DNA from: Lachnospiraceae bacterium
GTDB taxonomy: Bacteria > Bacillota > Clostridia > Lachnospirales > Lachnospiraceae
Assembly (NCBI GenBank): GCA_051877755.1
Contig: JBJEJE010000003.1
Location: 21,460-85,459, forward strand
Length of the DNA: 64,000 bases
Reading direction: 5' to 3'
Each line of letters opens with the position of its first letter. Positions within the stretch are counted from its first letter, which is position 1. Positions 2,817 to 43,371 of this stretch are shown here, one piece after another. Below the pieces are notes generated by a model that did not search any database, was not told the origin of the DNA, and saw only the letters and a program-made list of their open reading frames with translations. The translations under genes were made by a program, and so were the position numbers.

Positions 2817-2828
2817 GAGGTATATAGA

Positions 2829-4107: not shown

Positions 4108-4153
4108 AATATATTTTAAATTATTTATAGAATATATTTTATGATAGAAAGAT

Positions 4154-4215: not shown

Positions 4216-4216
4216 A

Positions 4217-5173: not shown

Positions 5174-5213
5174 ATATATCCTTCTAAATGTATATTTGTA
5201 TTTGAGTGTTGTA

Positions 5214-5786: not shown

Positions 5787-5845
5787 AAAATAACCCCCAT
5801 TACTGTAAGTGATTCTTGAAATAGTAGTATTCTATATATGAGTAA

Positions 5846-5917: not shown

Positions 5918-5948
5918 AGATAATAAGAACAAATGGTTGAGGAATATG

Positions 5949-6833
5949 TCACATAAAATGAACCTGTCCCTGCAACCAGATAATTCCTTTAAATCTTCTT
6001 CCAATCCGTGGTTCACCTTCAAGATCCAGGGAATTGATTGCCACGTTGATGGTAAGATCATTGCATACCACAGTTAGATTATACACCAATTCACCGGAAA
6101 ATTCATTAGTAATTTGTTCTATTTTTGTAATAATTCCTAAAATGGAATAGTGTTCGTTATCAATACCATATGGCATAAAGTATGTTTCAATAACAGTGAA
6201 TAAATCTTCATCTTTAATCCGCTTGGAAATAAGAGAGTAGGTATCCATATCGTCTAAAGTTAAATTTTCCAAAGCATCCATATCACCGGACTTTGCTTTA
6301 GCTATAAGATTACGGCGTTCCTTATTACTGATGGGCTGTTTCTCGTAGGGATAGGAGATGTATTCTAAATGAACACCATAAAGAATTCTTCCATTTAATG
6401 ATAAAGCACCAAACTTTACTTTCTTTGGAATTTTGTAAAAGTCATTTAACCAGGTACTTCTTACATAATCGACAATATTTTGCAGAGCATAAATGAGAGT
6501 AATCCCTAGATTGTAATCATCTGAAACTCCGGAATAGGCCTCCTTGTCTGTGTGTCCTTCAATCTGGATATCCGGTTGTGTCGTAGTATGGGAGCCTATA
6601 CAATAAGGAAAAGAATGATCTACCATGATGGTACCTTCTTTATCACTTTCTGCAATGATTGCAAGACCAAGACCGCCTCCTAAATCTCTGTTTATCTGAA
6701 TTAATTTGGTATCTGCTCCGATTTCAATTTCTCTTCTGTTTGTGGAATCATTTAATGCAGCGGTTATCAGTGTATTCTGTTCTATTTTATTTTTGAGTTT
6801 GCTAAAACCGATAGCGCGTAAATAACTATGCAT
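5949..6833 (-). CDS. DUF3881-like protein
   Basis: 294 aa. The N-terminus MHSYLRAIGFS matches my recollection of the DUF3881 family signature. No catalytic motif was recognised. Confidence 0.55.
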   Translation of the reverse strand: MHSYLRAIGFSKLKNKIEQNTLITAALNDSTNRREIEIGADTKLIQINRDLGGGLGLAIIAESDKEGTIMVDHSFPYCIGSHTTTQPDIQIEGHTDKEAYSGVSDDYNLGITLIYALQNIVDYVRSTWLNDFYKIPKKVKFGALSLNGRILYGVHLEYISYPYEKQPISNKERRNLIAKAKSGDMDALENLTLDDMDTYSLISKRIKDEDLFTVIETYFMPYGIDNEHYSILGIITKIEQITNEFSGELVYNLTVVCNDLTINVAINSLDLEGEPRIGRRFKGIIWLQGQVHFM

Positions 6834-6845
6834 TTTATACTCCTT

Positions 6846-7409
6846 TTAATAACTGATTTCTGGTTTTCTTTCTTCTCTTTCTTTTGCTGCTTCTTCTGCA
6901 CCTTCTTTGCCTATGGCAACATTGAGTGCCAGTCGCTCTTCTTCTGATAAGATATAATAGGATTCTTCATTGGTTACTTCCTTACAATAAGTAAAGCATC
7001 CTTCACGGCTATGCATGGAGGTAATAATGATACCATCGTGATTTTCTGTAAGTAGTGCCAGGGAAAAACTGAGTTTGCCTGACATTTCCTTGAAGGCATC
7101 ATATTTTACAAGACCAATTTTACAAAAGGTAGTAAGAAATTTATCGTTAATGATTTCAATGTCTTTGTTCTGTTTTTTTTCATTTTTTACAACCTGACGA
7201 ATTTCAGAAAATCTTTTTATAATAATTTCTTCTAAATTCGCAGCATCTTTTCCGGTAGTGAAACGTGTAAGACGCTTGTTTAATTTATTATATTTGGAAA
7301 TAATTGTAAATATCCATATAAATTGAAATATTACAACAACAATTAATATAAGTACTACTAAATCAATACTTATTCCAATTGAATCAAATATATCTGCTCC
7401 CATTGCCAA
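6846..7409 (-). CDS. DUF4446-like membrane protein (commonly follows parB in Firmicutes)
   Basis: 187 aa with a single N-terminal TM helix (VVLILIVVVIFQFIWIFTII). It lies directly downstream of parB on the same strand. Confidence 0.55.
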   Translation of the reverse strand: MAMGADIFDSIGISIDLVVLILIVVVIFQFIWIFTIISKYNKLNKRLTRFTTGKDAANLEEIIIKRFSEIRQVVKNEKKQNKDIEIINDKFLTTFCKIGLVKYDAFKEMSGKLSFSLALLTENHDGIIITSMHSREGCFTYCKEVTNEESYYILSEEERLALNVAIGKEGAEEAAKEREERKPEISY

Positions 7410-7485
7410 CCCTCTTTATTTCTTTCTCATCTGTTTTGAATGAATAACTTTATTACTTTTGTGTTTTCTTCTTTACAAATAAGTT

Positions 7486-8424
7486 TTATGATTGAATTGA
7501 ATATATCATTTCCATGATGTGCTCTAATTCATCTTTTGAATAATATTCAATCTCAATTTTTCCCTTTTCATTATTCTTTGCTTTAACTGTTGTCTTTGCT
7601 CCAAGTTTATATTTGAAATTTTCTTCCAGTTCTCTGTAGAGAAAAGATAAATCCTCCGTCGTAGCCGCAGCTTCTGGCTCTTTTTTAGGATTATTCAAAT
7701 CATTGACAATTTTCTTTACAAGCTTTTCTGTTTCTCTGACAGATAATCGTTCATCAAAAACTTTACAAGCTGTTTCATATTGTAATTCTTTATCCTCAAT
7801 TGGAAGAAGTGCTCTTGCATGTCCATTGGATAATTTTTCGTCAATGACCATCTCTTGTACTGCTTCTGTCAGTTTTAACAAACGTAGTATGTTAGTAATA
7901 TTACTTCTACTTTTGGAAACCCGTTCTGCCACATCATCCTGTTTTAAGTGAAATTCTTCTATTAATTTTTTATAAGCCTGGGCTTCTTCAATTGGATTTA
8001 AGTCTTCTCTTTGAATGTTTTCAATCAGACCAATCTCTAATATTTGCTGATCGGTATACTCTTTCACCACAACAGGTACTTCCTTTAAACCTGCTTTCAT
8101 GGCTGCTCTCCAACGTCTTTCGCCAGATACCAGAAGATAGTAATTATTTCGTTTTGTAACAACAAGTGGTTCAATTACACCATGCTGGGAAATGGAGTCT
8201 GCTAATTCCTGAAGAGCGTCCTCATTGAATTGCTTTCTCGGCTGATCTTTGTTGATTTCAATATCTTTTATTTTCAGCGTCATTTCCTTAGGTACTTCTT
8301 TGACCACTTCTTTAATGATTTCTTTTGGCTCATCTGATTTGCTTGATGTTCTATTTTTTCTAGTCTGAGCTGTATTAACTCCTAACATGGTATCCAGACC
8401 ATTACCTAATCCTTTTTTTGGCAT
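7486..8424 (-). CDS. parB: Chromosome partitioning protein ParB/Spo0J
   Basis: The ParB box is LVVSGERRWRAAMKAGL, with GLIENIQREDLNPIEEA and an HTH (QDDVAERVSKSRSNITNILRLLKL). Confidence 0.93.
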   Translation of the reverse strand: MPKKGLGNGLDTMLGVNTAQTRKNRTSSKSDEPKEIIKEVVKEVPKEMTLKIKDIEINKDQPRKQFNEDALQELADSISQHGVIEPLVVTKRNNYYLLVSGERRWRAAMKAGLKEVPVVVKEYTDQQILEIGLIENIQREDLNPIEEAQAYKKLIEEFHLKQDDVAERVSKSRSNITNILRLLKLTEAVQEMVIDEKLSNGHARALLPIEDKELQYETACKVFDERLSVRETEKLVKKIVNDLNNPKKEPEAAATTEDLSFLYRELEENFKYKLGAKTTVKAKNNEKGKIEIEYYSKDELEHIMEMIYSIQS

Positions 8425-8440
8425 TTTAATTTCCTCCTAA

Positions 8441-8456
8441 TGTTTCATGTGAAACA
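8441..8456. promoter_or_regulatory. parS-like centromere site TGTTTCATGTGAAACA
   Basis: 15 of 16 positions match the Firmicute parS consensus TGTTNCACGTGAAACA (central CACGTG is CATGTG here). It lies in the parA-parB intergenic region and is embedded in a 22-bp block identical to the copy at 9443-9464. Confidence 0.8.
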
Positions 8457-8547
8457 TTTTTAAAATGAAAATAGCACTCATATAGTTTTCAACGAATATA
8501 TATGCCTGCAAGCAGTCAATATATTCTTGTGAAAACTGCATTCATGC

Positions 8548-9315
8548 TTATACGTTTATGTTTGTGATGACTTCATCAGCTAGTAATCGATAACTTTCTG
8601 CACCAGCACTTCTGGAATCATATGTTATAATTGGCATTCCGTGACTAGGTGCTTCAGCTAAACGTACATTTCTTGGGATAATTGTCTTATATACATTTTG
8701 ATTGAGATTTTCTTTTACATTTTCAACAACTTGTAAAGATAAGTTTGTACGGGAGTCGTACATAGTAAAAACAACACCCTCAATCTTTAAATCTTTATTT
8801 AATTTCTGCTGAATTAATTCAATCGTATATATCAACTGGGAAAGTCCATCCAAAGCAAAAAACTCACATTGAATTGGAACAAGAACAGTATTTGCAGCTG
8901 TCATGGAATTGATTGTGAGCATTCCTAAAGCAGGCGGACAGTCAATAATTACATAATCAAATTTATCCTGGATTTTTCGTAATTGATTCTTGATAATATA
9001 TTGCATATCCGGTTCTCCAATAAATTCGACTTCAGCACCAGCTAAATATCGATTGGAAGGTAATATATTTAATCCCGGTATTACATTAATTAACATAGCT
9101 TCACCTATGTTACAGTTCTCACACATAACATCATAAATGGTATATTCTAAGTCATCTTTGTTAATACCAAATCCTGTTGTCAAATGTCCCTGTGGATCCA
9201 TGTCTACTGCTAAAGTTTTGAAACCTTTCTCAGCAAGGCAGGCAGCTAAGTTAATAGAAGTTGTTGTTTTACCAACTCCACCTTTCTGATTTGCAATTGC
9301 AATAATTCTTCCCAT
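8548..9315 (-). CDS. parA: Chromosome partitioning ATPase ParA/Soj
   Basis: The deviant Walker A is [34 protein letters not shown] and the 255 aa length also fit. Confidence 0.93.
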
Positions 9316-24740: not shown

Positions 24741-24786
24741 AAGCTGCCGCTTCATGATGTATCTATCGTGAAGTGGCAGCTTTTTT
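24741..24786. terminator. Bidirectional terminator between LRR protein 2 and the Ser/Thr kinase gene
   Basis: AAGCTGCCGCTTCA...TGAAGTGGCAGCTT is followed by TTTTTT, with an A-rich stretch on the left side. Confidence 0.75.
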
Positions 24787-26371
24787 ACTGTTCTGAAGAA
24801 GCAGCATTTTCCTGCTCGTCAACCCAATCAATTGTCATCCGGATGTTATTCATTATATCGGCCAGAGCACCCTGATATTCTACACGGGACTTCTCGCCAG
24901 AGGCTGTGGCATAGATATACAGACAGCTTTCTGTATTTATCACACTTGGAGTAAGATAGTTATAGATATTTGAATAAATGGCATCCGCATAATGCTCATA
25001 GGAGCCCAGCTTCTGTTTTAAAATCTGGTCCCGGTAAGCGAGATTGTCCCGTATTTGTACAATGGGAGCCCGGAAATCTTCTCCGGAAGAAGGAGTAACA
25101 CCATAATAGTCAGTACCTGTTACTTGACTGACAGCTTCATCTTCATAGAGGGCTTTTACTAATTTCTCACAGTTTGCCGCCATAGAAGAAGAGTCACTGT
25201 TATAACAGTCAAGGATGATCTGGTTCACCAAATCCTGAAATTCTAGAAAATCACATTCCATGGCACCAGACTGCTCAAACAAGGAAACATTCTCAGAGGA
25301 TACAGCAGCCTTGTTGGTTTCAGTAGAATCGGTTTCCATTTGGGAGGTATCATTTTCTGTGGAAGTAGTATTTTCTATGGAAGTGGTATTTTCTGCAGCA
25401 TTTCCGGATTCTTTATCTGAATTCAAGGAATCGGATAATGTAATATTATCCTGTTTTTCATAAAAGGAGCCACCTATAAATCCAAGTCCTGTTCCTAAAG
25501 CCAGTATCAGAAGCCCCAACCCAATCTGATAAGCATAGGATTTAGAAAAATTCAGATGGCTCTGATAATGCTTTAGGGAGCGGATGAGCTGCCCTACATC
25601 CGAATATCGCTTATCCGGTGCGAAATCCGTGCAGCGGGAAATCATTTTTTGAAATGGTTTTGCAATGGAAGAGGATTTCAAATCCTTGATTTCTGTACTT
25701 CCATAGGTTAAATATAACAAGGTTTTTCCCAGGGCATAGATATCCGTCCGCACATCACTCTGGGAAAATCCAAACTGCTCCGGCGCGGCATGGGAAGGGG
25801 TACCAACTAACATGGTATCCCTGGATTTATCTGGGGTAAAGACTCTTGCAGTATCAAAATCAATCAGATAAAGAACACCGGTGCCTTTTTGAATAATGAA
25901 ATTCTCCGGCTTAATGTCCCTGTGGATAATGGGTGGATTTTGTTTATGTAACAGCTGGATTATTTCACAGATTTCCAGCATGTAGCCTGTGATTTCCGTA
26001 TCAGACAGATAGAGTCGGCGTTCAAAATAGTCCGCTAAAGAAATGCCTTCAATATAGTCTCTTAACAGATAACAGGTTTCCCCCTCTTCCCAGCAATCCA
26101 TGCATTCCGGAACTGCTAAATTCTGTATTGTCCCCAGTTGCTTTGAGATTTGATATTCCTGTTTGATCAAAGGAATCTGTCTGTCGGTTCCCCGTTTCAG
26201 GATGAACTGGCTTTCCTTTGCATCTGATAATAGATAAATCTCTTTATTGGAAGATGTCTTTAGACAGTCGCGAAGCTGATAGGAGTCAGCCAGACGGTCA
26301 GGCAGCTGAAAGGAGTGTAATTGTTCATTATAGGAATTCAAAAAAGAATTGGAAGGTTTAACAGAATCCAT
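24785..26371 (-). CDS. Membrane Ser/Thr protein kinase (Hanks-type) with an uncharacterised extracellular C-terminal domain
   Basis: The catalytic loop is HRDIKPENF. DFDTAR replaces DFG, and an APE-like HAAPEQ is present. A TM segment (IGLGLLILALGTGLGFIGG) is followed by ~230 aa outside. Start is set at ATG 26371 (AAAGGAGA RBS); the longer track ORF overlaps the trmB region. Confidence 0.82.
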   Translation of the reverse strand: MDSVKPSNSFLNSYNEQLHSFQLPDRLADSYQLRDCLKTSSNKEIYLLSDAKESQFILKRGTDRQIPLIKQEYQISKQLGTIQNLAVPECMDCWEEGETCYLLRDYIEGISLADYFERRLYLSDTEITGYMLEICEIIQLLHKQNPPIIHRDIKPENFIIQKGTGVLYLIDFDTARVFTPDKSRDTMLVGTPSHAAPEQFGFSQSDVRTDIYALGKTLLYLTYGSTEIKDLKSSSIAKPFQKMISRCTDFAPDKRYSDVGQLIRSLKHYQSHLNFSKSYAYQIGLGLLILALGTGLGFIGGSFYEKQDNITLSDSLNSDKESGNAAENTTSIENTTSTENDTSQMETDSTETNKAAVSSENVSLFEQSGAMECDFLEFQDLVNQIILDCYNSDSSSMAANCEKLVKALYEDEAVSQVTGTDYYGVTPSSGEDFRAPIVQIRDNLAYRDQILKQKLGSYEHYADAIYSNIYNYLTPSVINTESCLYIYATASGEKSRVEYQGALADIMNNIRMTIDWVDEQENAASSEQ

Positions 26372-26521
26372 ATGTTTCTCCTTTCTGCGGAACTTTCTTC
26401 TGTAAAAATGTCGCATGCTCTGCATAAATATAAAAGAATTATAACATATACAATCTTGTTTCGGAAGAGGAAAGAAGGTATAATGCAATTACCTATCTTA
26501 TTAAAAAAATGGAGGAAGAAA

Positions 26522-31849: not shown

Positions 31850-33655
31850 ATGGAGAAGAATAAAGGGTTATCAAAGTTAAAAATAATTTATTTTCTGCTG
31901 CTGACAATATTAGTCGTTGTGGTAGTTGCCGGAACGGTTGTGATTTTTGGAAGACTTGACAGTACGGATACAGATGCCAGAAATCTGATTATGGCAGTGG
32001 CAATTCTGGTAGTTTTGCTGGCATTGGGATTATCTGTGGTTATGTTGAAGTTTATTCAGGATGAGGAGCGGGTTTCTGCGGTCAAGAGCGACAAGTATAA
32101 GAAGTTATTTTTGAATCTGCCGGTTGGTTTTGCCCAGGCACAGATTTTGAGAGATCCTCAGTCAGGACGCAACATGGGGTATCGGATTTCAGATGCAAAT
32201 GAAACCTTTGGACGTTTGTTTGATCTGGATATTTCCGATTACTATAACAAAGTCATATCCGAGAGTAAAGTAGAGGTGTTGCAGGATATCAATGCCTGGT
32301 TTGAGGCATATAATAATTCCGGTACCAAACAGGGTGAATTATTAGCGGTAGAGATTACCATGGAAAAGCTGAACAAGGTATTTAATACGGTTATGTATAA
32401 GTCAGAGGCGGATTACATTAACATGGTGGTCATTGATATTACAGAGCAGAAAGAAACAGAGAACAAATTATCTGCAGCAATCAAGGATGCCAATGCGGCT
32501 TATAAGACACAGTCCGAGTTCCTTGCCAATATGTCCCATGAAATCCGGACACCGATTAATGGTATATTAGGTATGTTACAGCTGACTTTGATGGCAGATG
32601 ATCTGCAGGCTGACTACAGAGATAATTTGACCACGGCTAAAAACTGTGCAGATACGCTGCTGAGACTGATCAATGATATTCTGGATATCTCTAAGTTAGA
32701 GGCAGGTAAGTACAATTTAAGAGAAGAGAATTTTGATATTAAGGCTGTGATCGAGGAAACGATTGCAGCACAGGTTCCGTTGGCTCAGGGCAAAGGTCTT
32801 GGTCTGGATTGCAGTTTTGGAAGCAATATTCCAAAGCTGGTTCGGGGTGATGGACAGCGTATCCAGCAGGTCTTAAACTGTCTGTTATCCAATGCTATCA
32901 AGTTTACCAATGAAGGTGGTGTGCGGGTTAAGGTAGCCTGTATAGATGATACGATGGATAAGATCAAGCTTCGGATTGCTGTAGCAGATTCCGGTATTGG
33001 TATATCGGATGCAGACCGCAACAAACTGTTTATCCGGTTTTCACAGGTGGATGCTTCTGATACCCGTAAATATGGTGGTTCCGGACTGGGACTTGTCATT
33101 ACAAAGCAGATTGTAGAGTTAATGGGTGGTAATATTACCGTTCAAAGTAAAGAGGGGCTGGGATCTACATTTATTGTAGAAGTTCCACTTAAACTTATTA
33201 AAGCAGCAGACGAAGTGGTAGAAGAGACTGCCAGCACAGAAGAACCGGCAGTATTTTCTCTTGTAGGGCATACAAGAGCCAGAATCCTTGTGGCAGAAGA
33301 TGAACCTGTAAACCAGCAGGTGATTGGTAAACTTCTCGGTATGGCAGGTTATTCTTATGATATTGCAGAAAATGGAGAGAAGGCAGTAGAACTGTTTAAA
33401 CAGAAGGAATATCAGGCAGCATTATTTGATGTGCAGATGCCGGTTATGGATGGCCTTGCAGCAACACAGGAAATTCGTGCTATTGAACTTCGGGAGAACC
33501 GGAAGCGTCTGCCGATCATTGCGGTTACCGCAAGAGCCATGTTTGGAGACAAGGAACGTATCTTAGAGGCAAAGCTGGATGATTACATAGCAAAACCATA
33601 TAACTTAAATGATGTGGTAGAAACCCTTAACAAATATGTGGATAAGGAGGATTAA
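31850..33655 (+). CDS. Hybrid sensor histidine kinase/response regulator
   Basis: Two N-terminal TM helices are present. The H-box is FLANMSHEIRTPINGILG, the N-box LSNAIKFT, G1 DSGIGI and G2 GGSGLGL. The C-terminal receiver has ILVAEDEPVNQ...DVQMPVMDG...AVTA...K. Confidence 0.92.
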   Translation: MEKNKGLSKLKIIYFLLLTILVVVVVAGTVVIFGRLDSTDTDARNLIMAVAILVVLLALGLSVVMLKFIQDEERVSAVKSDKYKKLFLNLPVGFAQAQILRDPQSGRNMGYRISDANETFGRLFDLDISDYYNKVISESKVEVLQDINAWFEAYNNSGTKQGELLAVEITMEKLNKVFNTVMYKSEADYINMVVIDITEQKETENKLSAAIKDANAAYKTQSEFLANMSHEIRTPINGILGMLQLTLMADDLQADYRDNLTTAKNCADTLLRLINDILDISKLEAGKYNLREENFDIKAVIEETIAAQVPLAQGKGLGLDCSFGSNIPKLVRGDGQRIQQVLNCLLSNAIKFTNEGGVRVKVACIDDTMDKIKLRIAVADSGIGISDADRNKLFIRFSQVDASDTRKYGGSGLGLVITKQIVELMGGNITVQSKEGLGSTFIVEVPLKLIKAADEVVEETASTEEPAVFSLVGHTRARILVAEDEPVNQQVIGKLLGMAGYSYDIAENGEKAVELFKQKEYQAALFDVQMPVMDGLAATQEIRAIELRENRKRLPIIAVTARAMFGDKERILEAKLDDYIAKPYNLNDVVETLNKYVDKED

Positions 33656-33659: not shown

Positions 33660-33890
33660 TTACGTTGTCTGTTGTGCCTGACGCAGAAGGAATTTGTAAC
33701 GCATATATGCCCCCTTTAGCTGATAAGTATAGCAGTCGATCAGATCCGGATCGGTCTGATAATCCAGATGTAAAAGCAGAGTGTCAATGTCTCTTTTGGC
33801 ATTGTTCAGATCAACAAGTAAAGAGGAATCGGTTGTCACAGAATTTTGTGAGGACCGGTTCTTTTTTTTGATGCCCTTTTTTGTCTGCAT
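33660..33890 (-). CDS. Small protein, DUF2508 (YaaL)-like
   Basis: 77 aa from ATG 33890 (AAGGAG RBS). The pattern LLVDLNNAKRDID...DPDLIDCYTYQLKGAYMRYKFLLRQA resembles YaaL-type proteins as I recall them. Confidence 0.4.
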   Translation of the reverse strand: MQTKKGIKKKNRSSQNSVTTDSSLLVDLNNAKRDIDTLLLHLDYQTDPDLIDCYTYQLKGAYMRYKFLLRQAQQTT

Positions 33891-34127
33891 AGGATACACT
33901 CCTTTCCATAATTTGTTTTCCATATATTTCATTATAGGATACAAAATCATAAATTATACATAATTTTGAAAATCTAAACAAAATTATGTATTTGAAATCA
34001 TAAAGTGAAAGTTGGAAAATCAAAATTATGAAAATATCGAATACAAAAAAGGAGAAATTTGAAAAATCTATGTTTATTATGCAATCTTGATCATAATCGT
34101 AGACAGTGAAAAAAGAAAGCAATATAA

Positions 34128-34604
34128 TTGCAAAAAATCAAAAAAGGAAGTGAAAAATTGATCAAGATACAGATGGTTACGGCAGCTGTTTTATTAGGAA
34201 GGGCAGTCTATACGGATGTAAAAAATGAACGGATCGAAAACAGCCTGATTCTTGTTGGATGCACTGCCGGAATGTTAACAGCCTTTTGTGGGGGTGGTAT
34301 ATCCCAGGTATGGAATGGGGTAAAAATGGCAGGAATCCTTCTGCTGGCGCTTTTCTTTTTGTTTTGGATAAAGGGTTTGGGGGCGGGAGATATCAAGTTG
34401 TTATGTATGCTGGCAGTATTTTTTCCAAACCAGGCTATATCGATTCTGGTGGGTTCTTTTTTTGCAGGAGCATGTTTATCAGTGGGAAAAATGTTAATAA
34501 AACACATAAAAAAAGAATCATTTTATATACGAACAGAGACATTGCATTTTTCCATACCGGTGGCGATTAGCACCTTTGTAGTTATGGGAATGGAAATCCT
34601 CTAA
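34128..34604 (+). CDS. A24-family prepilin peptidase (TadV/CpaA-like)
   Basis: Polytopic membrane protein. The first Asp context is AVYTDVKNERI and the second catalytic motif is GLGAGDIKLL. The start is uncertain (TTG 34128, TTG 34158 or ATG 34173). Confidence 0.72.
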   Translation: MQKIKKGSEKLIKIQMVTAAVLLGRAVYTDVKNERIENSLILVGCTAGMLTAFCGGGISQVWNGVKMAGILLLALFFLFWIKGLGAGDIKLLCMLAVFFPNQAISILVGSFFAGACLSVGKMLIKHIKKESFYIRTETLHFSIPVAISTFVVMGMEIL

Positions 34605-34630
34605 ACCTGCAGGCAGAAAGAAGGTGGGGC

Positions 34631-35548
34631 ATGGGAACATTGAAGATAGGGATATTTGATGATGAGGAGCGATATGTACAAAAGCTGGCTGCATATTTGA
34701 ACCGGCATGGCTGGGAAAATTGGAAGATGTGTTCCTTTACAGATGAAAAAATTTTATCTGATTATATGGAAAGACAGGAGCTTGATATTCTGGCAGGAAC
34801 CCGGAAAGAAGTACTGATGAATCTACAGCAAAATTTTGGAAGAACCTGTTACATATGGCTGACAGAAAATAATTTATATAAAGAGGACAAAGAGAAAAAG
34901 CTCTATACCATTTATCGGTATCAGAGTGCAAAAGCGGTGGCAAAAGCAATGAAGGACATTGTGGACTATTTGGGGCTTTTAAAGGGAATTCATCAAAAGA
35001 TAATAGCTATATATTCACCTGTGGGAAGATGTGGAAAGACTTCGCTGGCACTGGAATTCGTCAAAAGCGGGCGGTGTGGAAGGTGGATGTATATCGGTAT
35101 GGAAGATTATAGCTTTTTAGGAAGCGCGAATACCGGAGATGCAGAATTATTTCTCTATTTTGTAAAGGAAAGAAACCGGGAAAAAGTAAAAGACTTGATT
35201 GAGGCAGCACAGGGAATTCTGCCCTCCGCTTTTTCTCCTTTTGATACCAGGCAGGTGGGAAAGGGGGATGTACAATGGCTGCTGGAAATGCTGCAGGAAA
35301 ATCATGTTTATAATGGAATTGTTTTTGATATAGGAACCGGAGTATTACAGGACTTTGAAAGCTTTCTTTTGTTTGATGTTATCGTTGTTCCCTATCTTCC
35401 GGATGATAAATCCATGGAAAAGAGAAAGCAGTTTGAATCATTGGTTATTGCGTATGACTTGGAGGAAGTGGTGGGAAAATTACGATTCATCAACATGAAA
35501 GAAAAGAATCAGATTATGCATCAGATAGAGGAGATTGTCAATGAATAA
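34631..35548 (+). CDS. TadZ/CpaE-like protein with an N-terminal pseudo-receiver and a degenerate ParA/MinD-type ATPase domain
   Basis: The N-terminus is IGIFDDEERYVQKLAAYL...LDILAG. A P-loop-like IIAIYSPVGRCGKTSLALEF is present. It sits directly upstream of the CpaF-type ATPase. Confidence 0.5.
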   Translation: MGTLKIGIFDDEERYVQKLAAYLNRHGWENWKMCSFTDEKILSDYMERQELDILAGTRKEVLMNLQQNFGRTCYIWLTENNLYKEDKEKKLYTIYRYQSAKAVAKAMKDIVDYLGLLKGIHQKIIAIYSPVGRCGKTSLALEFVKSGRCGRWMYIGMEDYSFLGSANTGDAELFLYFVKERNREKVKDLIEAAQGILPSAFSPFDTRQVGKGDVQWLLEMLQENHVYNGIVFDIGTGVLQDFESFLLFDVIVVPYLPDDKSMEKRKQFESLVIAYDLEEVVGKLRFINMKEKNQIMHQIEEIVNE

Positions 35549-36788
35549 ACTGGAGAAAGAAAAAGAACTGCTTCAGGAAAACCTGTTGAAACACCTCAAT
35601 GGCAGTGGTGAGCTTTGTGATGCGGAAATCTATGAACGCATTGAGCAGGAGATAATAAGGAGAAGCAGGGAAGTTTATCTTTCGGTATCGGAAAGACAGA
35701 TTTTAAAAAGAGAACTGTTTAATGTATTTCGCAGGCTGGATGTGTTATCAGAACTTTTGGAGGATGAAGAGATATCCGAAATCATGATTAATGGCTGTGA
35801 TCATATTTTTATTGAAAGGAAAGGCCGTATTACAAAAGTGGAGGAAGTATTCTCTTCTGAAGAACGGCTTCGGAATGTGATACAGCAGATTGTAAGTAAT
35901 TGCAACCGGATTGTCAACGAAACTGTGCCAATCGTAGATGCAAGACTGGAGGATGGTTCCAGAGTAAATGTGGTACTGCCGCCGGTGGCGTTAAACGGGG
36001 CAGTTATGACCATACGAAAATTTCCCAAAGCATTTTTTACCATGGACAAATTGATTGAAATGGGCTCCATTACTCCCGAGGCAGCAGCATTTTTGGAAAA
36101 GCTGGTCAAGGCGAGATATAACATTTTTATCAGCGGGGGAACCGGTAGTGGAAAAACAACTTTTTTAAATGTGCTGAGCAATTTCATACCCTGTGGGGAG
36201 CGTGTTATCACCATAGAAGATTCTGCGGAACTGCAGTTAAACGGAATTGATAACCTGGTAAGGCTGGAAACAAGAAATGCCAATGTGGAAGGAGAAAATG
36301 CCATTCCGATGTCGCAGCTGATCAAGACTGCCCTGCGGATGCGTCCGGACCGGATTATTGTAGGAGAGGTCCGGGATGCGGCGGCGATGGATATGACAAA
36401 CAGCATGTTAACCGGCCATGATGGAAGTATCAGCACCGGTCATGGGAATTCAGCTAAGGAAATGATGCTTCGCTTAGAGACTATGATTTTAATGGGATAT
36501 GATATGCCGATACTGGCTATTCGTCAACATATTGCAGCAGCAATTGATATTGTGGTGCATTTAGGGCGGCTTCGGGACAACAGCAGAAAAGTGTTGGAAA
36601 TCTGTGAAGTGACAGGGGTGGAGGATGGGGAGATCATGCTTCACACACTGTTTCAGTTTCGGGAAGTTTTGGAAAAGGATGGAAAAGTGATTGGCGCCTT
36701 GGAACAGGTCGAGGAACTGAACCAGAAAAATAAGCTGATACTGGGTGGGTATTGGAAGGAGGATACATTTGAAGAAGAAGGATTATAG
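35541..36788 (+). CDS. CpaF/TadA-family secretion ATPase
   Basis: Walker A is ISGGTGSGKTTFLN. Asp box ITIEDSAEL, Walker B RIIVGEVRD and His box TGHDGSISTGHGNS are present. ATG 35541 follows GAGGAG and overlaps the upstream stop. Confidence 0.92.
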   Translation: MNKLEKEKELLQENLLKHLNGSGELCDAEIYERIEQEIIRRSREVYLSVSERQILKRELFNVFRRLDVLSELLEDEEISEIMINGCDHIFIERKGRITKVEEVFSSEERLRNVIQQIVSNCNRIVNETVPIVDARLEDGSRVNVVLPPVALNGAVMTIRKFPKAFFTMDKLIEMGSITPEAAAFLEKLVKARYNIFISGGTGSGKTTFLNVLSNFIPCGERVITIEDSAELQLNGIDNLVRLETRNANVEGENAIPMSQLIKTALRMRPDRIIVGEVRDAAAMDMTNSMLTGHDGSISTGHGNSAKEMMLRLETMILMGYDMPILAIRQHIAAAIDIVVHLGRLRDNSRKVLEICEVTGVEDGEIMLHTLFQFREVLEKDGKVIGALEQVEELNQKNKLILGGYWKEDTFEEEGL

Positions 36789-37515
36789 AGTTTACCATTT
36801 TAGATGGAGGGACTGGGGGGAATTTGGCATACGGATTCTTTTAAAGGGAATTGTCATCTGTTATCTGTTTTATGATTCTTATAAGGCATGTTTACTGCTC
36901 CTGCCTTTTGTAGCAGCAGATTACCGCATGATGAAAAAGGAAAAGCTGAAAAACCAAAAAAGAAAATTAACACTTCAGTTTAAGGCGATGATGGAGGCAT
37001 TGGTAAATTCACTTATGGCCGGATATTCTCTGGAACGGGCTTTTGAAGATGCCAGAAAGGATATTTCCCTTATATATGAAGAAAAAGCAGAAATTTTTGA
37101 GGAACTGGACAGTATTTTATCCGGACTTAAAATGAACATTCCGCTGGAAAATCTGTTAGAGGATTTTGGAGTGAGAAGCGGGATAGAGGATATCAAGAAT
37201 TTTGCGGATGTGGTGATGGCGGCGAAAAGAAGCGGCGGAAATCTGATTCGTATTATACGAAAAACAGTAAACAGTATTTCTGACAAGATTGCAGTAGAGG
37301 AAGAGATTGAAACAATGATTACTTCGAAAAAGCTGGAGGAAAGAATTATGATGATAATGCCCTATGGAATTCTGTTTTATCTTCGTCTTTCCAGTGGAGA
37401 ATTTTTAGAGGTGCTTTATCATAACGTATTGGGAGCAATGGTCATGACGGTGTTTTTGCTGGCAGTTTATGTGGCAGACATATGGGCAGGAAAAATTATG
37501 GAGATACATGTATGA
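36769..37515 (+). CDS. TadB-like type II secretion system F-family membrane protein
   Basis: The T2SSF-type core is MAGYSLERAFEDA...FADVVMAAKRSGGNLIRII with flanking TM helices. A TTG start at 36769 follows GGAAGGAGG. The stop overlaps the next start (ATGA at 37512-37515). Confidence 0.72.
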   Translation: MKKKDYRVYHFRWRDWGEFGIRILLKGIVICYLFYDSYKACLLLLPFVAADYRMMKKEKLKNQKRKLTLQFKAMMEALVNSLMAGYSLERAFEDARKDISLIYEEKAEIFEELDSILSGLKMNIPLENLLEDFGVRSGIEDIKNFADVVMAAKRSGGNLIRIIRKTVNSISDKIAVEEEIETMITSKKLEERIMMIMPYGILFYLRLSSGEFLEVLYHNVLGAMVMTVFLLAVYVADIWAGKIMEIHV

Positions 37516-38837
37516 GAATTGTCAATGGAGTGATATATGTCATTTTAATAGTATGTGTGGCAAGCTGGCTGTCGAAAAAAGGAAATACAGTGTTTATGGA
37601 ATTTGTACAACGACATCTTTATCTGCTGGCACTGTTGTTCGCTGTCAATAGTCTGAGTTTTGCCATGACTTTTCAGAGGGAAGACAGTCAAATTTATGTG
37701 GAGAAGGAGGATTATGGGGGAACGGAAAAACAGATTATCTTTCAGTTGGAAAAGGAAGGAGATACGGAAGAAGTAACACTGAATGTACGTCCAAGGAAAC
37801 TTAAGGAAGAAGAACTGGAAAAAAGAATGCAGGCTGCTTTCAAATATTATGAAACACATTTAAAAGGAGAAAATGACTCTCTGGAGCATGTATCAAAAAA
37901 ACTGGATATCCATCTGGATTATGAGGAATATCCCTTTGAAGTGGAGGTACAGCCGGAGAATTATACTCTGATAGATGAGGAAGGAAATATAAGAAATGAG
38001 GAATCGGAGCTTTTAGAAGCGGGTTTTACAAGGGAGGAGATAAAAGAAGGAATTGCCACATCTGTGACTGTTATCCTGTGGTATGGAGAGGAAAGCCGTC
38101 AGCATACCTATGTGCTTAATGTTTTTCCAAAGGAAAAAAGTGAAAAGGAGATGCTTTTTTCCAGTATTGAAGACAAGCTTTCGAAGGAAGAGAAAAAAGC
38201 AATCTATAAAGAGGGTTTTTATGTACCGGTAAACATGGAGGGAGTTGCAATTACAAAAAAAGACAGCACTGAAATCACACCATTTCATGTATTACTTTTT
38301 GGCTTCATTTTCACTGGTCTTTTGCTTATGCGGGAGAAAGAAGAAGAGAGGAAAAAGGAAACAGAGAGAAAACAAAAACTGCTATGGTGCTATCCATGGT
38401 TTGTCAATGAAATGGTTTTGCTGCTGGGGGCAGGAATGCAGGTAAAGAACATTTTTCAGATGCTGGTAAAAGACTATGAAAAAAATGGTATAGATGGGAC
38501 GGATAACCGGATGCCGTTGATGGAGGAACTAATGAAGGCAAAAAGAGGGTTTGAGCTTGGAATGCCGGAAGAACAGATTTATTACCAGCTGGGAAGAAGG
38601 CTGAAGCTGCCCTGCTATATCAAGCTTATGACTCTTCTGGAGCAGAATGTAAAGAAAGGAGGAAAAGGGATTACGGCTGTATTTGAGCAGGAGGAGATTA
38701 ATGCATTGGAGGAGCGGAAAAATCTGGCAAAGCGGTATGGTGAAGAGGCGGGAACAAAACTTTTAGGACCAATGATACTGTTGCTGCTTGTCATTATGCT
38801 GATGATCATGGTACCCGCATTTATGAGTTTCGCATGA
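37512..38837 (+). CDS. TadC-like T2SS-F-family membrane protein with a ~270-aa N-terminal extension
   Basis: The C-terminal 170 aa carry a T2SSF-like core (LLLGAGMQVKNIFQML...ELGMPEEQIYYQLGRRL...LLEQNVKKGGKGIT) and a terminal TM helix. The N-terminal part has one TM helix plus a charged extracytoplasmic region. Confidence 0.68.
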   Translation: MRIVNGVIYVILIVCVASWLSKKGNTVFMEFVQRHLYLLALLFAVNSLSFAMTFQREDSQIYVEKEDYGGTEKQIIFQLEKEGDTEEVTLNVRPRKLKEEELEKRMQAAFKYYETHLKGENDSLEHVSKKLDIHLDYEEYPFEVEVQPENYTLIDEEGNIRNEESELLEAGFTREEIKEGIATSVTVILWYGEESRQHTYVLNVFPKEKSEKEMLFSSIEDKLSKEEKKAIYKEGFYVPVNMEGVAITKKDSTEITPFHVLLFGFIFTGLLLMREKEEERKKETERKQKLLWCYPWFVNEMVLLLGAGMQVKNIFQMLVKDYEKNGIDGTDNRMPLMEELMKAKRGFELGMPEEQIYYQLGRRLKLPCYIKLMTLLEQNVKKGGKGITAVFEQEEINALEERKNLAKRYGEEAGTKLLGPMILLLLVIMLMIMVPAFMSFA

Positions 38838-38908
38838 AATACACTCTATTCTTTTTTAACTGGCAGTAAAGTATTGGCTGCAGCCGGGGAGAGCAAAATA
38901 GAAAGGAG

Positions 38909-39100
38909 GTGAGGACAATGAGTGTTTTAAAACGGGCATGGTTGGATTTTTTAAAGGATGAATCAGGTATGGGCGTTGTTGAGATTATTTTGATTATTGT
39001 CGTACTGATTGCCATGGTCTTAATCTTTAAAGAGCAGATTAAGGCACTTGTGGAGAATATCTGGGAATCCATTAACCAGAATGCCAAAAAAATTTATTAA
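38909..39100 (+). CDS. Flp-type (type IVb) prepilin
   Basis: 63 aa. The leader MSVLKRAWLDFLKDESG is followed by MGVVEIILIIVVLIAMVLIF, giving G/xxxxE with Glu at +5 and a hydrophobic helix. A strong GGAGGTGAGG RBS is present. Confidence 0.72.
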   Translation: MRTMSVLKRAWLDFLKDESGMGVVEIILIIVVLIAMVLIFKEQIKALVENIWESINQNAKKIY

Positions 39101-39182
39101 TTATTGTAACAGGAAAGAACAGTTTTTTTAGAAAAAGATAGTCGGTGCCAACGATTATCACAGCAAATTTGGGAGGTGTACT

Positions 39183-40682
39183 ATGAAGAACAAAGGCCAG
39201 ACTACTGTTGTGTTTTCTCTGATGATCAGTGTCCTCCTGCTTTTTACCTTGACTGCACTCGAGGTGGGAAGAATATACATGAGCAGAATAAAAATGAAGG
39301 CTGTTATTCATAGTGCACAGACCAGCATTATGGCGGATTATAACAGAGAGCTGTTTGAACGGTATCATTTACTCTTTATGGATCCAACTTACGGAACAGG
39401 AAGTGAAGCAGCGGCAGAAGAGAAAATCGAAGATTATCTGGAGGTATCTTTAAATGGCGGAGAAGAACCGGGTAAAATTTATGAATTTACCATTGAAGAA
39501 ATTGCTCTGACCAATGAAAAAAATATAGTAGAGGATCATATGGAGCAGTTGAAAAGACAGATAATGGAGTATGAGAAAACCGCTGGTATGGTGGAGAAAA
39601 TAACAGAACTGGGCAGTAAGTTAAAAGAAGCACAGCAGGATGTACAAAAGGCAGAGGATGAAACCAATAGAAACGGAGAGGTATTACCGGATACGGGTGA
39701 GGAAAATACTTCGGAACAATCATCCGAAACAGGTGAGGATGGCGCAGATATGCCGGATGTGGAGGTGACAGACCCAAGGGATACATTAAAGGAATCATTA
39801 AAATTAGGAATTCTTGCTCTGGTACTGCCAGAGAATGCCGATATCTCCCGAGAAGAACAGGATTTTACTAATTCACCGTCAAAAGAGTATTCCAAAATGG
39901 AAGATGAGGAACGGGACAGCAGCTTCCAGAATATTGATATTTTAAAAAATCTATTGAAGGATTCCGTAAAGGATGTAAATAACCAGACATTAAAAGATCA
40001 GGCCGCTTTTGCGGGATATGTGAAAAGTCATTTTTCCAATGCAGTAAATCAGAGGGAGGATTCTGTGTTAAAGTGCGAGGCTGAATATATTTTAAAGGGT
40101 AAAAACAGTGATTATGACAATCTGGAAAGTGTTGTGACAGAACTGACATGGCTTCGGATGCCGGTTAATTATGCGTATCTGGTAAGTGATGAAGCAAAGC
40201 AGAGTGAGGCACTTACATTGTCGGCGGCAATCTGTACTGCAACGGGAACCCTGCCTATGATAGAGATAACAAAATATCTTTTGTTAGGATGCTGGGCATA
40301 TGGAGAGTCCGTTTATGAAGTGAAGCTGTTGCTGGCAGGAGAAAAAATACCTTACATAAAAACCAGTGCCAGATGGTATACCGATTTGAAAAGTCTGAAA
40401 GCGTCCGAAACAGTTTCTTCACAGAAAACAGGTATGGATTATGAGGATTTTCTGCTGCTGCTTTTGGTCAAGAAAGGAAAAGAGGATGCTGCTTATGCAA
40501 GAATGCTGGATTTAATAGAACTGAATCTGCAGCAGAAAGACTCCGATTTTCGTCTCTGCAATCTTATAGGAGAACTGACAGTTCAGGGAATAATCCATGT
40601 GAATGCACTGTTTGTGAAAAAGGGAAATACGGAAGTGTATGACTATTTTTTTGAAGAAGGATTTTCCTATACAGAGAATTAA
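39183..40682 (+). CDS. Large pilus-associated protein with a pseudopilin-like N-terminal helix (DUF5702-like)
   Basis: 499 aa. The N-terminus is MKNKGQTTVVFSLMISVLLLFTLTALEVGR. It has an acidic linker and lies inside the Tad operon. Confidence 0.5.
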   Translation: MKNKGQTTVVFSLMISVLLLFTLTALEVGRIYMSRIKMKAVIHSAQTSIMADYNRELFERYHLLFMDPTYGTGSEAAAEEKIEDYLEVSLNGGEEPGKIYEFTIEEIALTNEKNIVEDHMEQLKRQIMEYEKTAGMVEKITELGSKLKEAQQDVQKAEDETNRNGEVLPDTGEENTSEQSSETGEDGADMPDVEVTDPRDTLKESLKLGILALVLPENADISREEQDFTNSPSKEYSKMEDEERDSSFQNIDILKNLLKDSVKDVNNQTLKDQAAFAGYVKSHFSNAVNQREDSVLKCEAEYILKGKNSDYDNLESVVTELTWLRMPVNYAYLVSDEAKQSEALTLSAAICTATGTLPMIEITKYLLLGCWAYGESVYEVKLLLAGEKIPYIKTSARWYTDLKSLKASETVSSQKTGMDYEDFLLLLLVKKGKEDAAYARMLDLIELNLQQKDSDFRLCNLIGELTVQGIIHVNALFVKKGNTEVYDYFFEEGFSYTEN

Positions 40683-40865
40683 TATAACAGAAAATCTTAT
40701 ATATCTTTATAAGCTCTTATATGAAACGACCCAATGAATCAAAATGAATAAAAAGAGTAGCTTACGTTCAATATAATTTTTTGAATCTCCAGGTATGAAC
40801 AAGAAGTTTTGTATAAGAGTTTTTAAAGATATATAGGAGTAGAACATAATAGGATAAAGAGGTAT

Positions 40866-41654
40866 ATGGAAATGGTGGGAAAAGGCAGAATGGAAAAGAG
40901 GCATATAAAGCAAAAAAACAGAGGATATATTACGGTGGAAGCAAGCCTTGTGGTGCCGTTGTTTCTGTTCTTTTTATTAGCTGTGGTTAAAATTTATATG
41001 CTGCTTATAGCGGATGCCCATATTCATCAAAGTCTCGCAGAGGCAGCGGGATATGTCTCACAGTATTGTTATCTGGAACAGCAGATTATCAGGGAAGATG
41101 TGAAGGGGCTGGAAGCGGTTGTCAACACGGCAGTGCTTATCAGCCAGTTTGGAGATTATCTGGGAGATGATTTTTATGTGGAAACTATGGTGTCAGGTGG
41201 AAAAAAAGGAATTCTACTTACAGTATCTAAGGATGATGATAATCCGAAGATATTTTATGCAAAAGCAGATTATTTAATAAAAATATCTGTTCCAATCATT
41301 GGTGGTTTTTATATAAAAAGAAACTGCCGCATTAAGCAGAAAGCATTTCTTGGATATAGCCGGGAAGAAAAAAGTGAATGTTATGTTTATATAACACCCA
41401 ATCAGTCTGTTTATCATACAAAGCGAAATTGTACACATCTAGAACTTAAGATAAGAGAAAGTACAAGTACAGGAAAATTTAATCCCTGCAGTTTTTGTGG
41501 AAAAAATGTGGAAGCAGGAGAAAAAGTATATATTGCGGAAAATGGAGGGGTGTATCACTGTAACCGGAATTGCAGTGGACTAAAGCGGACAGTAACAAGA
41601 GTACGGCTTAGTGAAGTAAGGGGATTAGGACCATGTCAACGGTGTGGAAAATAG
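40866..41654 (+). CDS. TadE-like pseudopilin with a duplicated Cys/His C-terminal motif
   Basis: The N-terminus RG/YITVEASLVVPLFLFFLLAV fits G-x4-E. The C-terminus has two copies of VY(I/V)xxNxxVYHxxRNCxxL plus CSFCG and CQRCG. Confidence 0.55.
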   Translation: MEMVGKGRMEKRHIKQKNRGYITVEASLVVPLFLFFLLAVVKIYMLLIADAHIHQSLAEAAGYVSQYCYLEQQIIREDVKGLEAVVNTAVLISQFGDYLGDDFYVETMVSGGKKGILLTVSKDDDNPKIFYAKADYLIKISVPIIGGFYIKRNCRIKQKAFLGYSREEKSECYVYITPNQSVYHTKRNCTHLELKIRESTSTGKFNPCSFCGKNVEAGEKVYIAENGGVYHCNRNCSGLKRTVTRVRLSEVRGLGPCQRCGK

Positions 41655-41678
41655 GATTTTTGTCAGAGAGGAGAAAGA

Positions 41679-42023
41679 ATGAAAAAGAATAAGGGAAGTG
41701 CAATAATTGAGATGTCGTTGTTAACACCAGTCTTTTTGGGATGCGTTTTCTTATACATAATGTGCTTTTTGTTTTTTATTGAGACAGGAAGGGAAATGAA
41801 CTACTTGTCAGAACGCATCTATGCAAAAGAAGCAGAAGAGAATAACAATTTTACAGATAATTCATTTGAAGAAATTTGTGTTTATACCCAGGGGAGCACA
41901 AAAATTGCAGATATAAACAGAGAGGATACATGGTTTTCTTTTCATTTGGAATTACGAAAGGATGAAAGTGATCCGGTAATAAATCTTAGGAGGTGGCAGA
42001 TGATTGCAGATACAGTTCAGTAA
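41679..42023 (+). CDS. Small TadE-like pseudopilin
   Basis: 114 aa. The N-terminus MKKNKG/SAIIEMSLLTPVFLGCVFLYIM fits G-x4-E followed by a hydrophobic helix. Confidence 0.55.
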   Translation: MKKNKGSAIIEMSLLTPVFLGCVFLYIMCFLFFIETGREMNYLSERIYAKEAEENNNFTDNSFEEICVYTQGSTKIADINREDTWFSFHLELRKDESDPVINLRRWQMIADTVQ

Positions 42024-43371
42024 AGAGGGATTGCAAAATTATATGGTGGTGCCGTGGGAAGATAAATGGAAAGATGGATACCAGAGTAATCTGTTACAGC
42101 ATCATGAGGTGCCGCATTTTTTGCAGTATGAAGTGCGGGAACTGAATGGATGCGTTTCTTTATATTACAGATTGAAATACCGTACTTCATTAAAATCGGT
42201 TATAGGACAACTGCCTTTTTCCTTTGTCAGAGTAAAGAATATGGTAGCGGATATTATAGGTGTTTTGGAAACGGTAGAGGAATATCTGTTAGAAGCGGAG
42301 GGGATTGTGTGGAAAACAGAGTGGGTGTTTTTAGAGCCGGATACGGGTAAATTACTGTTTTGTTATTATCCGGATTTAGCCGGGGATACCGGTAATATGC
42401 GGACATTTCTCACCGAAATAATACAGGGCATTGATAAAAAACAGGAGGAAACGCTGTTGTTTGCTATGCAGTTTTATGACCTGGTTACAGAACCAGATTG
42501 TACGTTAGACGACTTGCAGCAATTCAGACAGAATAAAATAGAAGAGGATTTCTATAAAAGTGATTTGTGGGAAGCTGCACCGGTTTCCTCGGAAGAATCG
42601 AACATAGAGAATATGGCTGAAGCAGGCGTTATGATAGATAAGGAAGAAAAGCCTCAGCCTCAAAACAATCTTTGTACAGTTGGGAAACGGATTGTAAAGG
42701 GGCTTTTAGCAGTAACAGTGTTTGTGGATTTTATGTTGCTGATTGGTCTGGTTTTTAATGTGCTGACCTATGACTCCATGGGATATTTGTTTGGGGGAAT
42801 GGGTGTATTGATCCTGCTTACCATTATCTATATGCAGATGTCAAAGGAGGATTCTCCGGATGAGATCATGAAGGATTATTTTGAGGAGCAAAAGACGGTA
42901 AAGAAAGAGGATGATAACAGATTTGGATGTGAGGAGGATTGGGATGCTCCGGATTTTAAGAACCGGGAAGTGGATAAAACTGTGGATTATTATGGAGAAA
43001 CCAGCATTTTAACTGAAGATAATTTTAAGAGTTCAGAGGAAGAAATTGTAAATGAAAAAAACCAAGGACACTTGTATCTGGAATCATTAGAAAAGGAAAA
43101 ATATCCGCCAATTCATATTAAAAATGAGAGCATTGTTCTAGGCTGTATGGTGGATGGATGTAATTATATTCTACCGGAGCGTGGAATCAGCCGTCTGCAT
43201 GCAAAGATTATGGAAAAGGGGGATGGAATTTATCTGCTGGATTTAAATTCTACCAATGGAACCTATTTAAATGGGGAGATTTTGGAAAGCGGGCAGGATT
43301 ATAAATTAGAAGAAGGCGACCATGTCGCCTTCGCCAAAAGTGAATTCTATGTTGCTGTGGAACCAGTGTAA
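42004..43371 (+). CDS. Membrane protein with a C-terminal FHA domain
   Basis: FHA signatures are ISRLHAKIMEKGDGIYLLDLNSTNGTYLNGE. Two central TM helices are present (LLAVTVFVDFMLLIGLVF, FGGMGVLILLTIIYM). It is the last gene of the Tad cluster. The TTG start follows GGAGGTGG. Confidence 0.8.
   Translation: MQIQFSKEGLQNYMVVPWEDKWKDGYQSNLLQHHEVPHFLQYEVRELNGCVSLYYRLKYRTSLKSVIGQLPFSFVRVKNMVADIIGVLETVEEYLLEAEGIVWKTEWVFLEPDTGKLLFCYYPDLAGDTGNMRTFLTEIIQGIDKKQEETLLFAMQFYDLVTEPDCTLDDLQQFRQNKIEEDFYKSDLWEAAPVSSEESNIENMAEAGVMIDKEEKPQPQNNLCTVGKRIVKGLLAVTVFVDFMLLIGLVFNVLTYDSMGYLFGGMGVLILLTIIYMQMSKEDSPDEIMKDYFEEQKTVKKEDDNRFGCEEDWDAPDFKNREVDKTVDYYGETSILTEDNFKSSEEEIVNEKNQGHLYLESLEKEKYPPIHIKNESIVLGCMVDGCNYILPERGISRLHAKIMEKGDGIYLLDLNSTNGTYLNGEILESGQDYKLEEGDHVAFAKSEFYVAVEPV

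Follow-up and report, generated by a model that had tools for sequence, protein, structure and literature searches.

A putative Tad/Flp pilus operon of a Clostridia-wide subtype in a Lachnospiraceae genome

The Lachnospiraceae are among the most abundant bacteria of the gut and rumen, and how they attach to mucus, fibre, and each other is poorly known. The stretch of DNA analyzed here (64,000 nucleotides, hereafter "the window"; contig JBJEJE010000003.1, positions 21,460 to 85,459, of the Lachnospiraceae bacterium assembly GCA_051877755.1; C3:21460-85459 in the coordinates of this study) lies within a 3.08-Mb metagenome-assembled genome of 87% completeness and contains ten consecutive genes (g1 to g10, window positions 34128-43371) that resemble a Tad/Flp (type IVc) pilus system accompanied by additional proteins. 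The locus raises the question of whether these genes encode a working pilus in a monoderm bacterium and whether the additional proteins are peculiar to this genome. Comparative analysis suggested that the region is probably a type IVc (Tad/Flp) pilus operon that is functional in this monoderm member of the Lachnospiraceae and belongs to a subtype distributed across Clostridia, and an adhesive pilus is, with good confidence, its most likely function.

The core machine and the major pilin

A preliminary description of the window, made from the letters and their open reading frames, had assigned the core of the cluster to the Tad/Flp type, and this identity was borne out by profile matches, matches to solved structures, and motif conservation in homologue alignments from 75 loci found with CpaF. 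The profile searches that it had proposed recovered Peptidase_A24, T2SSE, and T2SSF, the latter above the Pfam cut-off (the gathering score throughout) for g4 and below it for g5. The candidate motor ATPase g3 gave the strongest core match (T2SSE, 183 bits), its top NCBIfam model was the TadA family TIGR03819 (268 bits, under the 373-bit cut-off of that model), and it matched the Caulobacter CpaF structures 8RKD and 9E24 with E values of about 1e-90. The Walker A motif, Asp/Glu box, and His box were invariant among 51 homologues. The putative prepilin peptidase g1 matched Peptidase_A24 with 47 bits and, at no more than 158 aa, was too short to hold the N-terminal domain of PilD-type enzymes; its Asp30 and GxGD88xK motif were invariant in 37 aligned homologues.

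Two putative platform proteins were encoded side by side. The T2SSF match of g4 reached 29 bits, and the position of this gene was constant in all related loci. The neighboring g5 scored 22 bits against a cut-off of 25.2, the full-length profile being aligned to aa 307-445 only, and occupied a conserved position beside g4. It had been described as an extended TadC, and an insert of about 200 aa between hydrophobic helices was indeed found, conserved in the alignment of Lachnospiraceae homologues and missing from versions of about 290 aa in two Clostridium-labelled loci (L063 and L064). A Pfam scan of the insert gave no match, and it would face outward provided that the T2SSF domain lies in the cytoplasm, as it does in the known platform proteins. 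The TadZ candidate g2 matched TadZ-like_ARD with 24 bits, below the cut-off of 27.4, and aligned with PDB entry 3FKQ across both domains (aa 4-274, E 3.8e-4), a weak similarity that was nevertheless colinear. Its P-loop SPVGRCGKT was conserved in 45 homologues, with the GKT kept and the MinD-type signature lysine absent. As had been noted earlier, the locus carried no secretin, RcpB, RcpC, or TadD; likewise, no secretin was seen in the 87%-complete genome assembly, which fits the expectation for a monoderm.

The candidate major pilin g6 matched Flp1_like with 83 bits, compared with only 18.7 bits for the canonical Flp_Fap profile (cut-off 32.2), and was the sole Flp1_like gene in the genome. 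It had been proposed as a 63-aa prepilin cut before MGVVE; the pilin assignment and cleavage position stood, with the Flp1_like match and the cleavage motif in their favor, and the length was revised, as the precursor is likely to comprise 60 aa from ATG 38919, a start codon with GGAGG seven bases upstream. Initiation at this codon would give a leader of 17 residues, the last being Gly, and a mature pilin of 43 residues that begins MGVVE. The motif DESG|MGVVEIIL was nearly invariant in 38 homologues, in which the Gly and the Glu at position +5 were invariant and position +6 was Ile rather than Tyr. By these features, g6 appears to fit the "Flp-like" pilin category (PMC3244431).

Pseudopilin-like proteins and the His-Cys3 module

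The 499-aa product of g7 matched the Pfam family DUF5702 with 241 bits. Its first 40 residues gave sub-threshold matches to TadE (E 0.021) and to the Tad/TadG-like family PF13400 (E 0.048), and among 42 relatives each of the two families was matched by 14, with E values down to 8.8e-6 for TadE and 0.0023 for PF13400. These matches suggest that g7 has a pilin-type N-terminus like that of TadG, in line with the pseudopilin-like N-terminus noticed previously, and the protein is best read as TadG-like. An AlphaFold2 model of g7 (pLDDT 82, pTM 0.77) combined a long helix at the N-terminus with a small sheet and a large helical domain that a hairpin closes; an acidic linker (aa 171-193) was disordered. 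A Foldseek search of this model against the PDB gave a best E value of 1.9, with nothing that resembled a lysozyme or transglycosylase, and the g7 alignment found no match when used as a profile against PDB sequences. Homologues with 50-60% identity were present in many gut and rumen assemblies, and NCBI names for DUF5702 homologues were either "pilus assembly protein" or "DUF5702 domain-containing protein".

Two further TadE-like pseudopilins with G-x4-E processing motifs had been predicted from the sequence, and both were supported. TadE matched g8 with 22.5 bits, against a cut-off of 22.9, and was matched by 36/36 of its homologues. Pfam gave no hit for g9, whose alignment with the g8 N-terminus by hhalign had a probability of 97% (E 4.8e-11), and TadE was matched below threshold in 15 of 30 g9 homologues. 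The class III leader of g8 reads G|YITVE, and G-x4-E was invariant among the homologues of g8 and g9; in the latter, Gly6 and Glu11 were invariant among the 30 homologues, and the C-terminal NLRRWQ motif was also conserved.

Three pseudopilin-like proteins against a single pilin, together with a large g7 ectodomain and a g5 insert that would suit a wall-spanning structure, could also describe a short pseudopilus-type apparatus that exports or displays surface proteins by pushing or anchoring them through the thick wall. This explanation was considered improbable, since neither a cargo gene nor a gene for a giant surface protein lies in the operon, the Flp1-like pilin shows high conservation and has a strong ribosome-binding site, as for a major subunit, and all characterised Tad systems build pili (PMC6916266). 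The adhesive pilus was preferred on these grounds.

The C-terminal part of g8 carries two modules whose putative ligands (H184, C189, C208, C211 and H231, C236, C257, C260) were nearly invariant. A structural model (pLDDT 85.5) placed two small beta-rich units after a pilin-like helix-plus-sheet domain. Foldseek against the PDB gave nothing usable for this model (best E 0.16), and the g8 alignment, used as a profile against PDB sequences, produced no match. The tandem His-Cys3 motif was found in the TadE-like protein of 8/9 other genera of the family, the ninth (L015) having only a single overlapping match, and also in one other family; it was absent from the homologues of families f24 and f27. 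A search with the 98-residue g8 C-terminus against 1.84 billion representative sequences (E <= 1e-3) identified the module in 2004 cluster representatives. Most of these proteins were 230-350 aa long with the module at the C-terminus, corresponding to a pseudopilin architecture, and a second class of 620-1260 aa carried 5-10 tandem copies of a unit of about 45 residues (YYH-x4-C ... PC-x2-C). Two examples of such arrays (P0123 and P0136) began with a membrane anchor, which a Ser/Thr/Pro-rich linker connected to the repeats; Pfam had no model for the latter. The His-Cys3 module is probably an extracytoplasmic unit that binds metal, with zinc suggested by the residue pattern.

Among the g8 homologues, sub-threshold matches were obtained to Ada_Zn_binding (3/36, best E 0.038), the ClpX zinc finger (6/36), and L24e (14/36, best E 2e-4). 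The Ada family being a zinc- and DNA-binding domain, and Micrococcus luteus requiring Tad pili for transformation (PMC6916266, PMC8467076), the tandem modules might be a DNA receptor at the tip of a DNA-uptake (competence) pilus. This was judged very unlikely: all module similarities were sub-threshold, the arrays of 5-10 copies occur in membrane-anchored proteins that resemble surface proteins rather than DNA receptors, the locus contains no competence gene, and the genome has a separate PilB/PilT type IVa locus. An adhesive role for the pilus remained the favored interpretation.

The DUF6382-FHA protein, conservation, and locus layout

The last gene, g10, had been described as a membrane FHA-domain protein, which agreed with an FHA match of 55 bits (aa 380-443) and two hydrophobic helices visible in the sequence at about aa 233-283. 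In addition, its N-terminal region matched DUF6382 with 120 bits (aa 6-165). The two-helix hairpin would place DUF6382 and FHA on the same side of the membrane, presumably in the cytoplasm. Phosphothreonine-binding FHA domains contact the phosphate through conserved Gly-Arg, Ser-x-x-His, and Asn-Gly-Thr motifs. The g10 residues S396, R397, H399, N418, and T420 were invariant. The residue following G380 was Cys, Ser, or Thr in the g10 clade, whereas distant homologues and a paralogue had Arg or Lys there.

This paralogue, a second DUF6382-FHA protein of 678 aa on contig C179, is encoded immediately ahead of the genes for a PP2C phosphatase and a TPR-containing Ser/Thr kinase, a neighborhood that supports a signalling role for the DUF6382-FHA family. 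It is plausible that the kinase/phosphatase pair acts in trans on the Tad-linked g10. A dead-kinase fold was also considered for DUF6382 and found no support at the sequence level: hhalign against the C179 Ser/Thr kinase domain gave a probability of 0.2%, and a Pfam search with 26 DUF6382 domains returned no kinase family; a profile search of PDB sequences with the DUF6382 alignment likewise gave no match. In the 87%-complete genome, no WXG100 protein was found and the only FtsK frame was an ordinary one of 887 aa, with no EssC-type ATPase, so that neither DUF6382 protein appears to serve a type VII secretion system. Upstream of the paralogue operon, a gene for a surface protein with Big_2/InlB repeats runs off the contig end.

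The accessory genes had been called non-canonical. They are indeed extra to the standard Tad set, but they are not idiosyncratic, as they form part of a conserved subtype with the Pfam families DUF5702 and DUF6382. Of the 75 CpaF loci, 26 from related Lachnospiraceae assemblies carried all ten genes in this order; contig ends cut most of the others, and further loci truncated in this way retained most of the ten genes. The order from g3 to g8 recurred in nine other genera of the family, each represented by one genome, with some genes undetected in some of them, and DUF6382 was identified by Pfam within 3 kb downstream of DUF5702 in 9/9 of these genera. Conservation across the 26 assemblies and nine genera implies purifying selection. 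A silent or decaying remnant without current function, which several domain scores under curated cut-offs and an operon known from genes alone might indicate, was the least probable explanation of all in view of ten open frames, invariant catalytic and processing motifs, DUF5702 with adjacent DUF6382 in all nine other genera, and the ten-gene order in 26 further assemblies.

In a wider survey of 300 evenly sampled Clostridia genomes, DUF5702 was present in 85 and DUF6382 in 94. DUF6382 occurred in 79 of the 85 genomes with DUF5702, within 5 kb downstream on the same strand in 46 of them, and in only 15/215 genomes without DUF5702; the tally is descriptive, as related genomes are not independent. 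Some families had the two domains unlinked, such as in genome G041 with 375 kb between them on one contig. By these comparisons, the accessory genes appear to be conserved parts of a Clostridia-wide Tad subtype and not oddities of one genome. That the accessory proteins have no experimentally assigned role, as previously stated, was supported by the literature searched: no publication was found on DUF5702, on a cysteine-rich Tad pseudopilin, or tying an FHA protein to a Firmicutes Tad pilus, and DUF6382 was mentioned only in a study of type VII variants (PMC11217815).

The ten open reading frames and their overlapping stop/start pairs were found as first described, co-directional, tightly packed, and with every frame open (Table 1). 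The overlaps comprised 14 nt between g2 and g3, 44 nt between g3 and g4, 4-34 nt between g4 and g5 (for which an alternative start at ATG 37512 is possible), and 20 nt between g9 and g10. The promoter-like site overlaps the listed start of g1 and AGGAAG precedes TTG 34158, so this gene probably begins at the TTG. The spacer between g7 and g8 (40683-40865) is AT-rich, measures 183 bp, and contains a weak promoter-like site (40822-40850), unlike many relatives in which the two genes abut or overlap. No terminator-like site was found on the plus strand between the ten genes, and RNA folding of the spacers 3' of g5, g6, and g7 produced none that beat shuffled sequences, with no attenuator after the pilin gene. 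Judged from strand and spacing, the ten genes probably form one operon.

Table 1. Coordinates of the putative pilus genes and associated features (window positions unless otherwise stated).
Feature	Position	Strand	Remarks
g1, short TadV-type A24 prepilin peptidase	34128..34604	+	likely true start TTG 34158
g2, TadZ-like, atypical receiver domain and ParA/MinD-like domain	34631..35548	+	
g3, CpaF/TadA motor ATPase	35535..36788	+	
g4, TadB-like platform protein, one T2SSF domain	36745..37515	+	T2SSF match
g5, TadC-like platform protein with insert of ~200 aa (aa ~65-265)	37482..38837	+	
g6, Flp1-like major pilin	38909..39100	+	likely start ATG 38919
g7, DUF5702, TadG-like protein, 499 aa	39183..40682	+	
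g8, TadE-like pseudopilin (G|YITVE), two C-terminal His-Cys3 modules	40866..41654	+	
g9, small TadE-like pseudopilin (G|SAIIE), C-terminal NLRRWQ motif	41679..42023	+	
g10, membrane protein, DUF6382, two-helix hairpin, and FHA	42004..43371	+	
Promoter-like TAGACA-17-TATAAT, 11/12 consensus	34100..34128	+	top plus-strand score of a consensus scan in the region; pattern only
Membrane hybrid histidine kinase	31850..33655	+	directly upstream; HisKA, HATPase_c, Response_reg; PAS-like region; two N-terminal transmembrane helices
Paralogue operon	L027 (G000:C179:18000-27056), 383-9057	-	also encodes a 312-aa protein without Pfam hit

The flanking genes are housekeeping or unrelated. Downstream, a convergent PGA_cap gene is followed by dnaX and recR. 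A small DUF2508 (YaaL-like) gene on the minus strand (33660-33890) is divergent from the operon and has its own GGAG ribosome-binding site. DUF2508 genes usually accompany dnaX-recR. With DUF2508 upstream and dnaX-recR beyond the pilus operon, the latter looks inserted into a housekeeping block. The hybrid histidine kinase was present upstream in about 30 close loci and not in several more distant ones; it may be an associated regulator, or the linkage may be plain synteny, and as the linkage fails in distant loci it was set aside as a neighbor and not counted as a member of the system. About 8 kb upstream, a gene for a Hanks-type kinase (24785-26488, minus strand), of which the genome has eight, lies beside genes for giant LRR (leucine-rich repeat) surface proteins. 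Elsewhere in the genome, a separate type IVa pilus locus (G000:C113:18156-23254) encodes PilB-like and PilT-like ATPases and a longer PilD-type A24 peptidase; with the Tad locus, this gives the genome two type IV filament systems.

Proposed assembly and comparison with known systems

By homology with characterised Tad systems, the g1 peptidase would cut the class III leaders of the g6 pilin (after Gly) and of g8 and g9, and the g4/g5 platform with the g3 CpaF hexamer would polymerise the 43-residue mature pilin from the membrane, while g2 would act as a ParA-like TadZ scaffold recruiting or positioning the machine. The products of g7, g8, and g9 may constitute a priming or tip complex, in which the helical ectodomain of g7 and the His-Cys3 modules of g8 would lie at the pilus tip or at a wall-spanning base and bind a ligand; a tip role for g7 and g8 is reasonable but unproven. 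The extracytoplasmic insert of g5 might replace the missing envelope-spanning parts. Finally, g10 could couple assembly to Ser/Thr phosphorylation in trans, most likely by the kinase and PP2C phosphatase next to its paralogue, such threonine-phosphorylation control being plausible but unproven. In the gut or rumen, the resulting filament would probably attach the bacterium to the mucus of its host, to plant fibre, or to other cells.

Several observations weigh against this interpretation or parts of it. The pilus is known here from genes alone as regards the filament, its processing, and its expression, and the TadZ, TadC, and TadE matches of this copy fall just below the Pfam cut-offs. The residue at position +5 of g7 is Val instead of Glu, such that processing or incorporation may fail; the g7 ectodomain and g8 modules have no structural neighbors and no assigned fold or function, and zinc binding by the latter is suggested by the residue pattern. 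For the regulatory part, the FHA domain lacks the Arg of the canonical Gly-Arg pair in this clade and its binding may be phospho-independent, and the operon itself contains no kinase or phosphatase gene.

The core machine is textbook, and the subtype is widespread and experimentally untouched. The operon type occurred in all ten sampled genera of the family (including this one) and in more than one in four of the Clostridia genomes surveyed, and this wide occurrence suggests that it is probably a major surface organelle of these commensals. Its three conserved and never-studied parts, the TadG-like g7, the Cys-rich pseudopilin g8, and the DUF6382-FHA protein g10, offer handles on how a filament can pass through a thick wall and be held there when the diderm parts are missing, and on how its assembly is regulated.

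The Tad/Flp pili of Aggregatibacter actinomycetemcomitans and Caulobacter crescentus share with this locus the CpaF/TadA motor, separate TadB and TadC proteins, a short TadV-type peptidase, a small pilin with Glu at +5, TadZ, TadE/F-type pseudopilins, and a larger TadG-like protein. In contrast to these systems, the locus lacks a secretin, RcpB, RcpC, and TadD, encodes an Flp1_like pilin without Tyr at +6, and has a TadG-like protein with DUF5702 in place of the usual ectodomain. Added here are the His-Cys3 pseudopilin, the extracytoplasmic insert of TadC, and the DUF6382-FHA protein. Judged by gene content, the core corresponds to a standard type IVc machine from which the diderm parts are missing (PMC6916266, PMC6668835).

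Secretin-less Tad systems have been described in Bifidobacterium breve UCC2003 and Micrococcus luteus, comprising a pilin, two minor pilins, two platform proteins, one ATPase, and TadZ and/or TadG (PMC6916266). The present system is a similarly minimal machine, but it encodes both TadZ and TadG-like proteins whereas those have either one, and the FHA protein, DUF5702, and Cys-rich pseudopilin are without counterpart in the two species. The latter are Actinobacteria whose pili have been studied experimentally, in contrast to the subtype described here, which is known from genes alone. Within the same family, PDB entry 3FKQ, cited as the TadZ of Eubacterium rectale by Denise et al. (PMC6668835, ref. 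47), has the same two-domain build as g2; the similarity is weak, and even the Agathobacter-type homologue from a locus of the same architecture reaches only an E value of 7.9e-10.

The closest likeness to g10 comes from the type VII secretion subtypes e and f, in which TseJ and TsfJ have a DUF6382 plus FHA architecture and the TsfJ partner TsfV of subtype f carries a TadZ-like atypical receiver domain (PMC11217815). TsfJ resembles g10 in its N-terminal DUF6382, C-terminal FHA, two transmembrane helices, and the cytoplasmic location of both domains. TseJ and TsfJ belong to type VII systems, whereas g10 closes a Tad operon. A tentative and rather doubtful extension of these parallels is that a DUF6382-FHA protein and a partner with a TadZ-type receiver form a portable docking switch gated by threonine phosphorylation, which Clostridia would plug into unrelated envelope machines, such as Tad pili here and type VII subtype f elsewhere. 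As part of the same speculative proposal, the switch would be split in this genome, with the reader in the pilus operon and the kinase and PP2C phosphatase with the paralogue on another contig, and the His-Cys3 module would be an undescribed extracellular metal-binding adhesion unit at the pilus tip.

Finally, tad-like loci of Clostridia, including those of C. bolteae and Clostridium sp. L2-50, were reported to contain tadA, tadC, tadV, and tadZ with species-specific unknown genes and no recognisable prepilin (Imam et al. 2011, PMC3244431). The locus described here may be of the type seen in that study; in contrast to the loci as then annotated, both its Flp1_like pilin and its pseudopilins are recognisable with current profiles.

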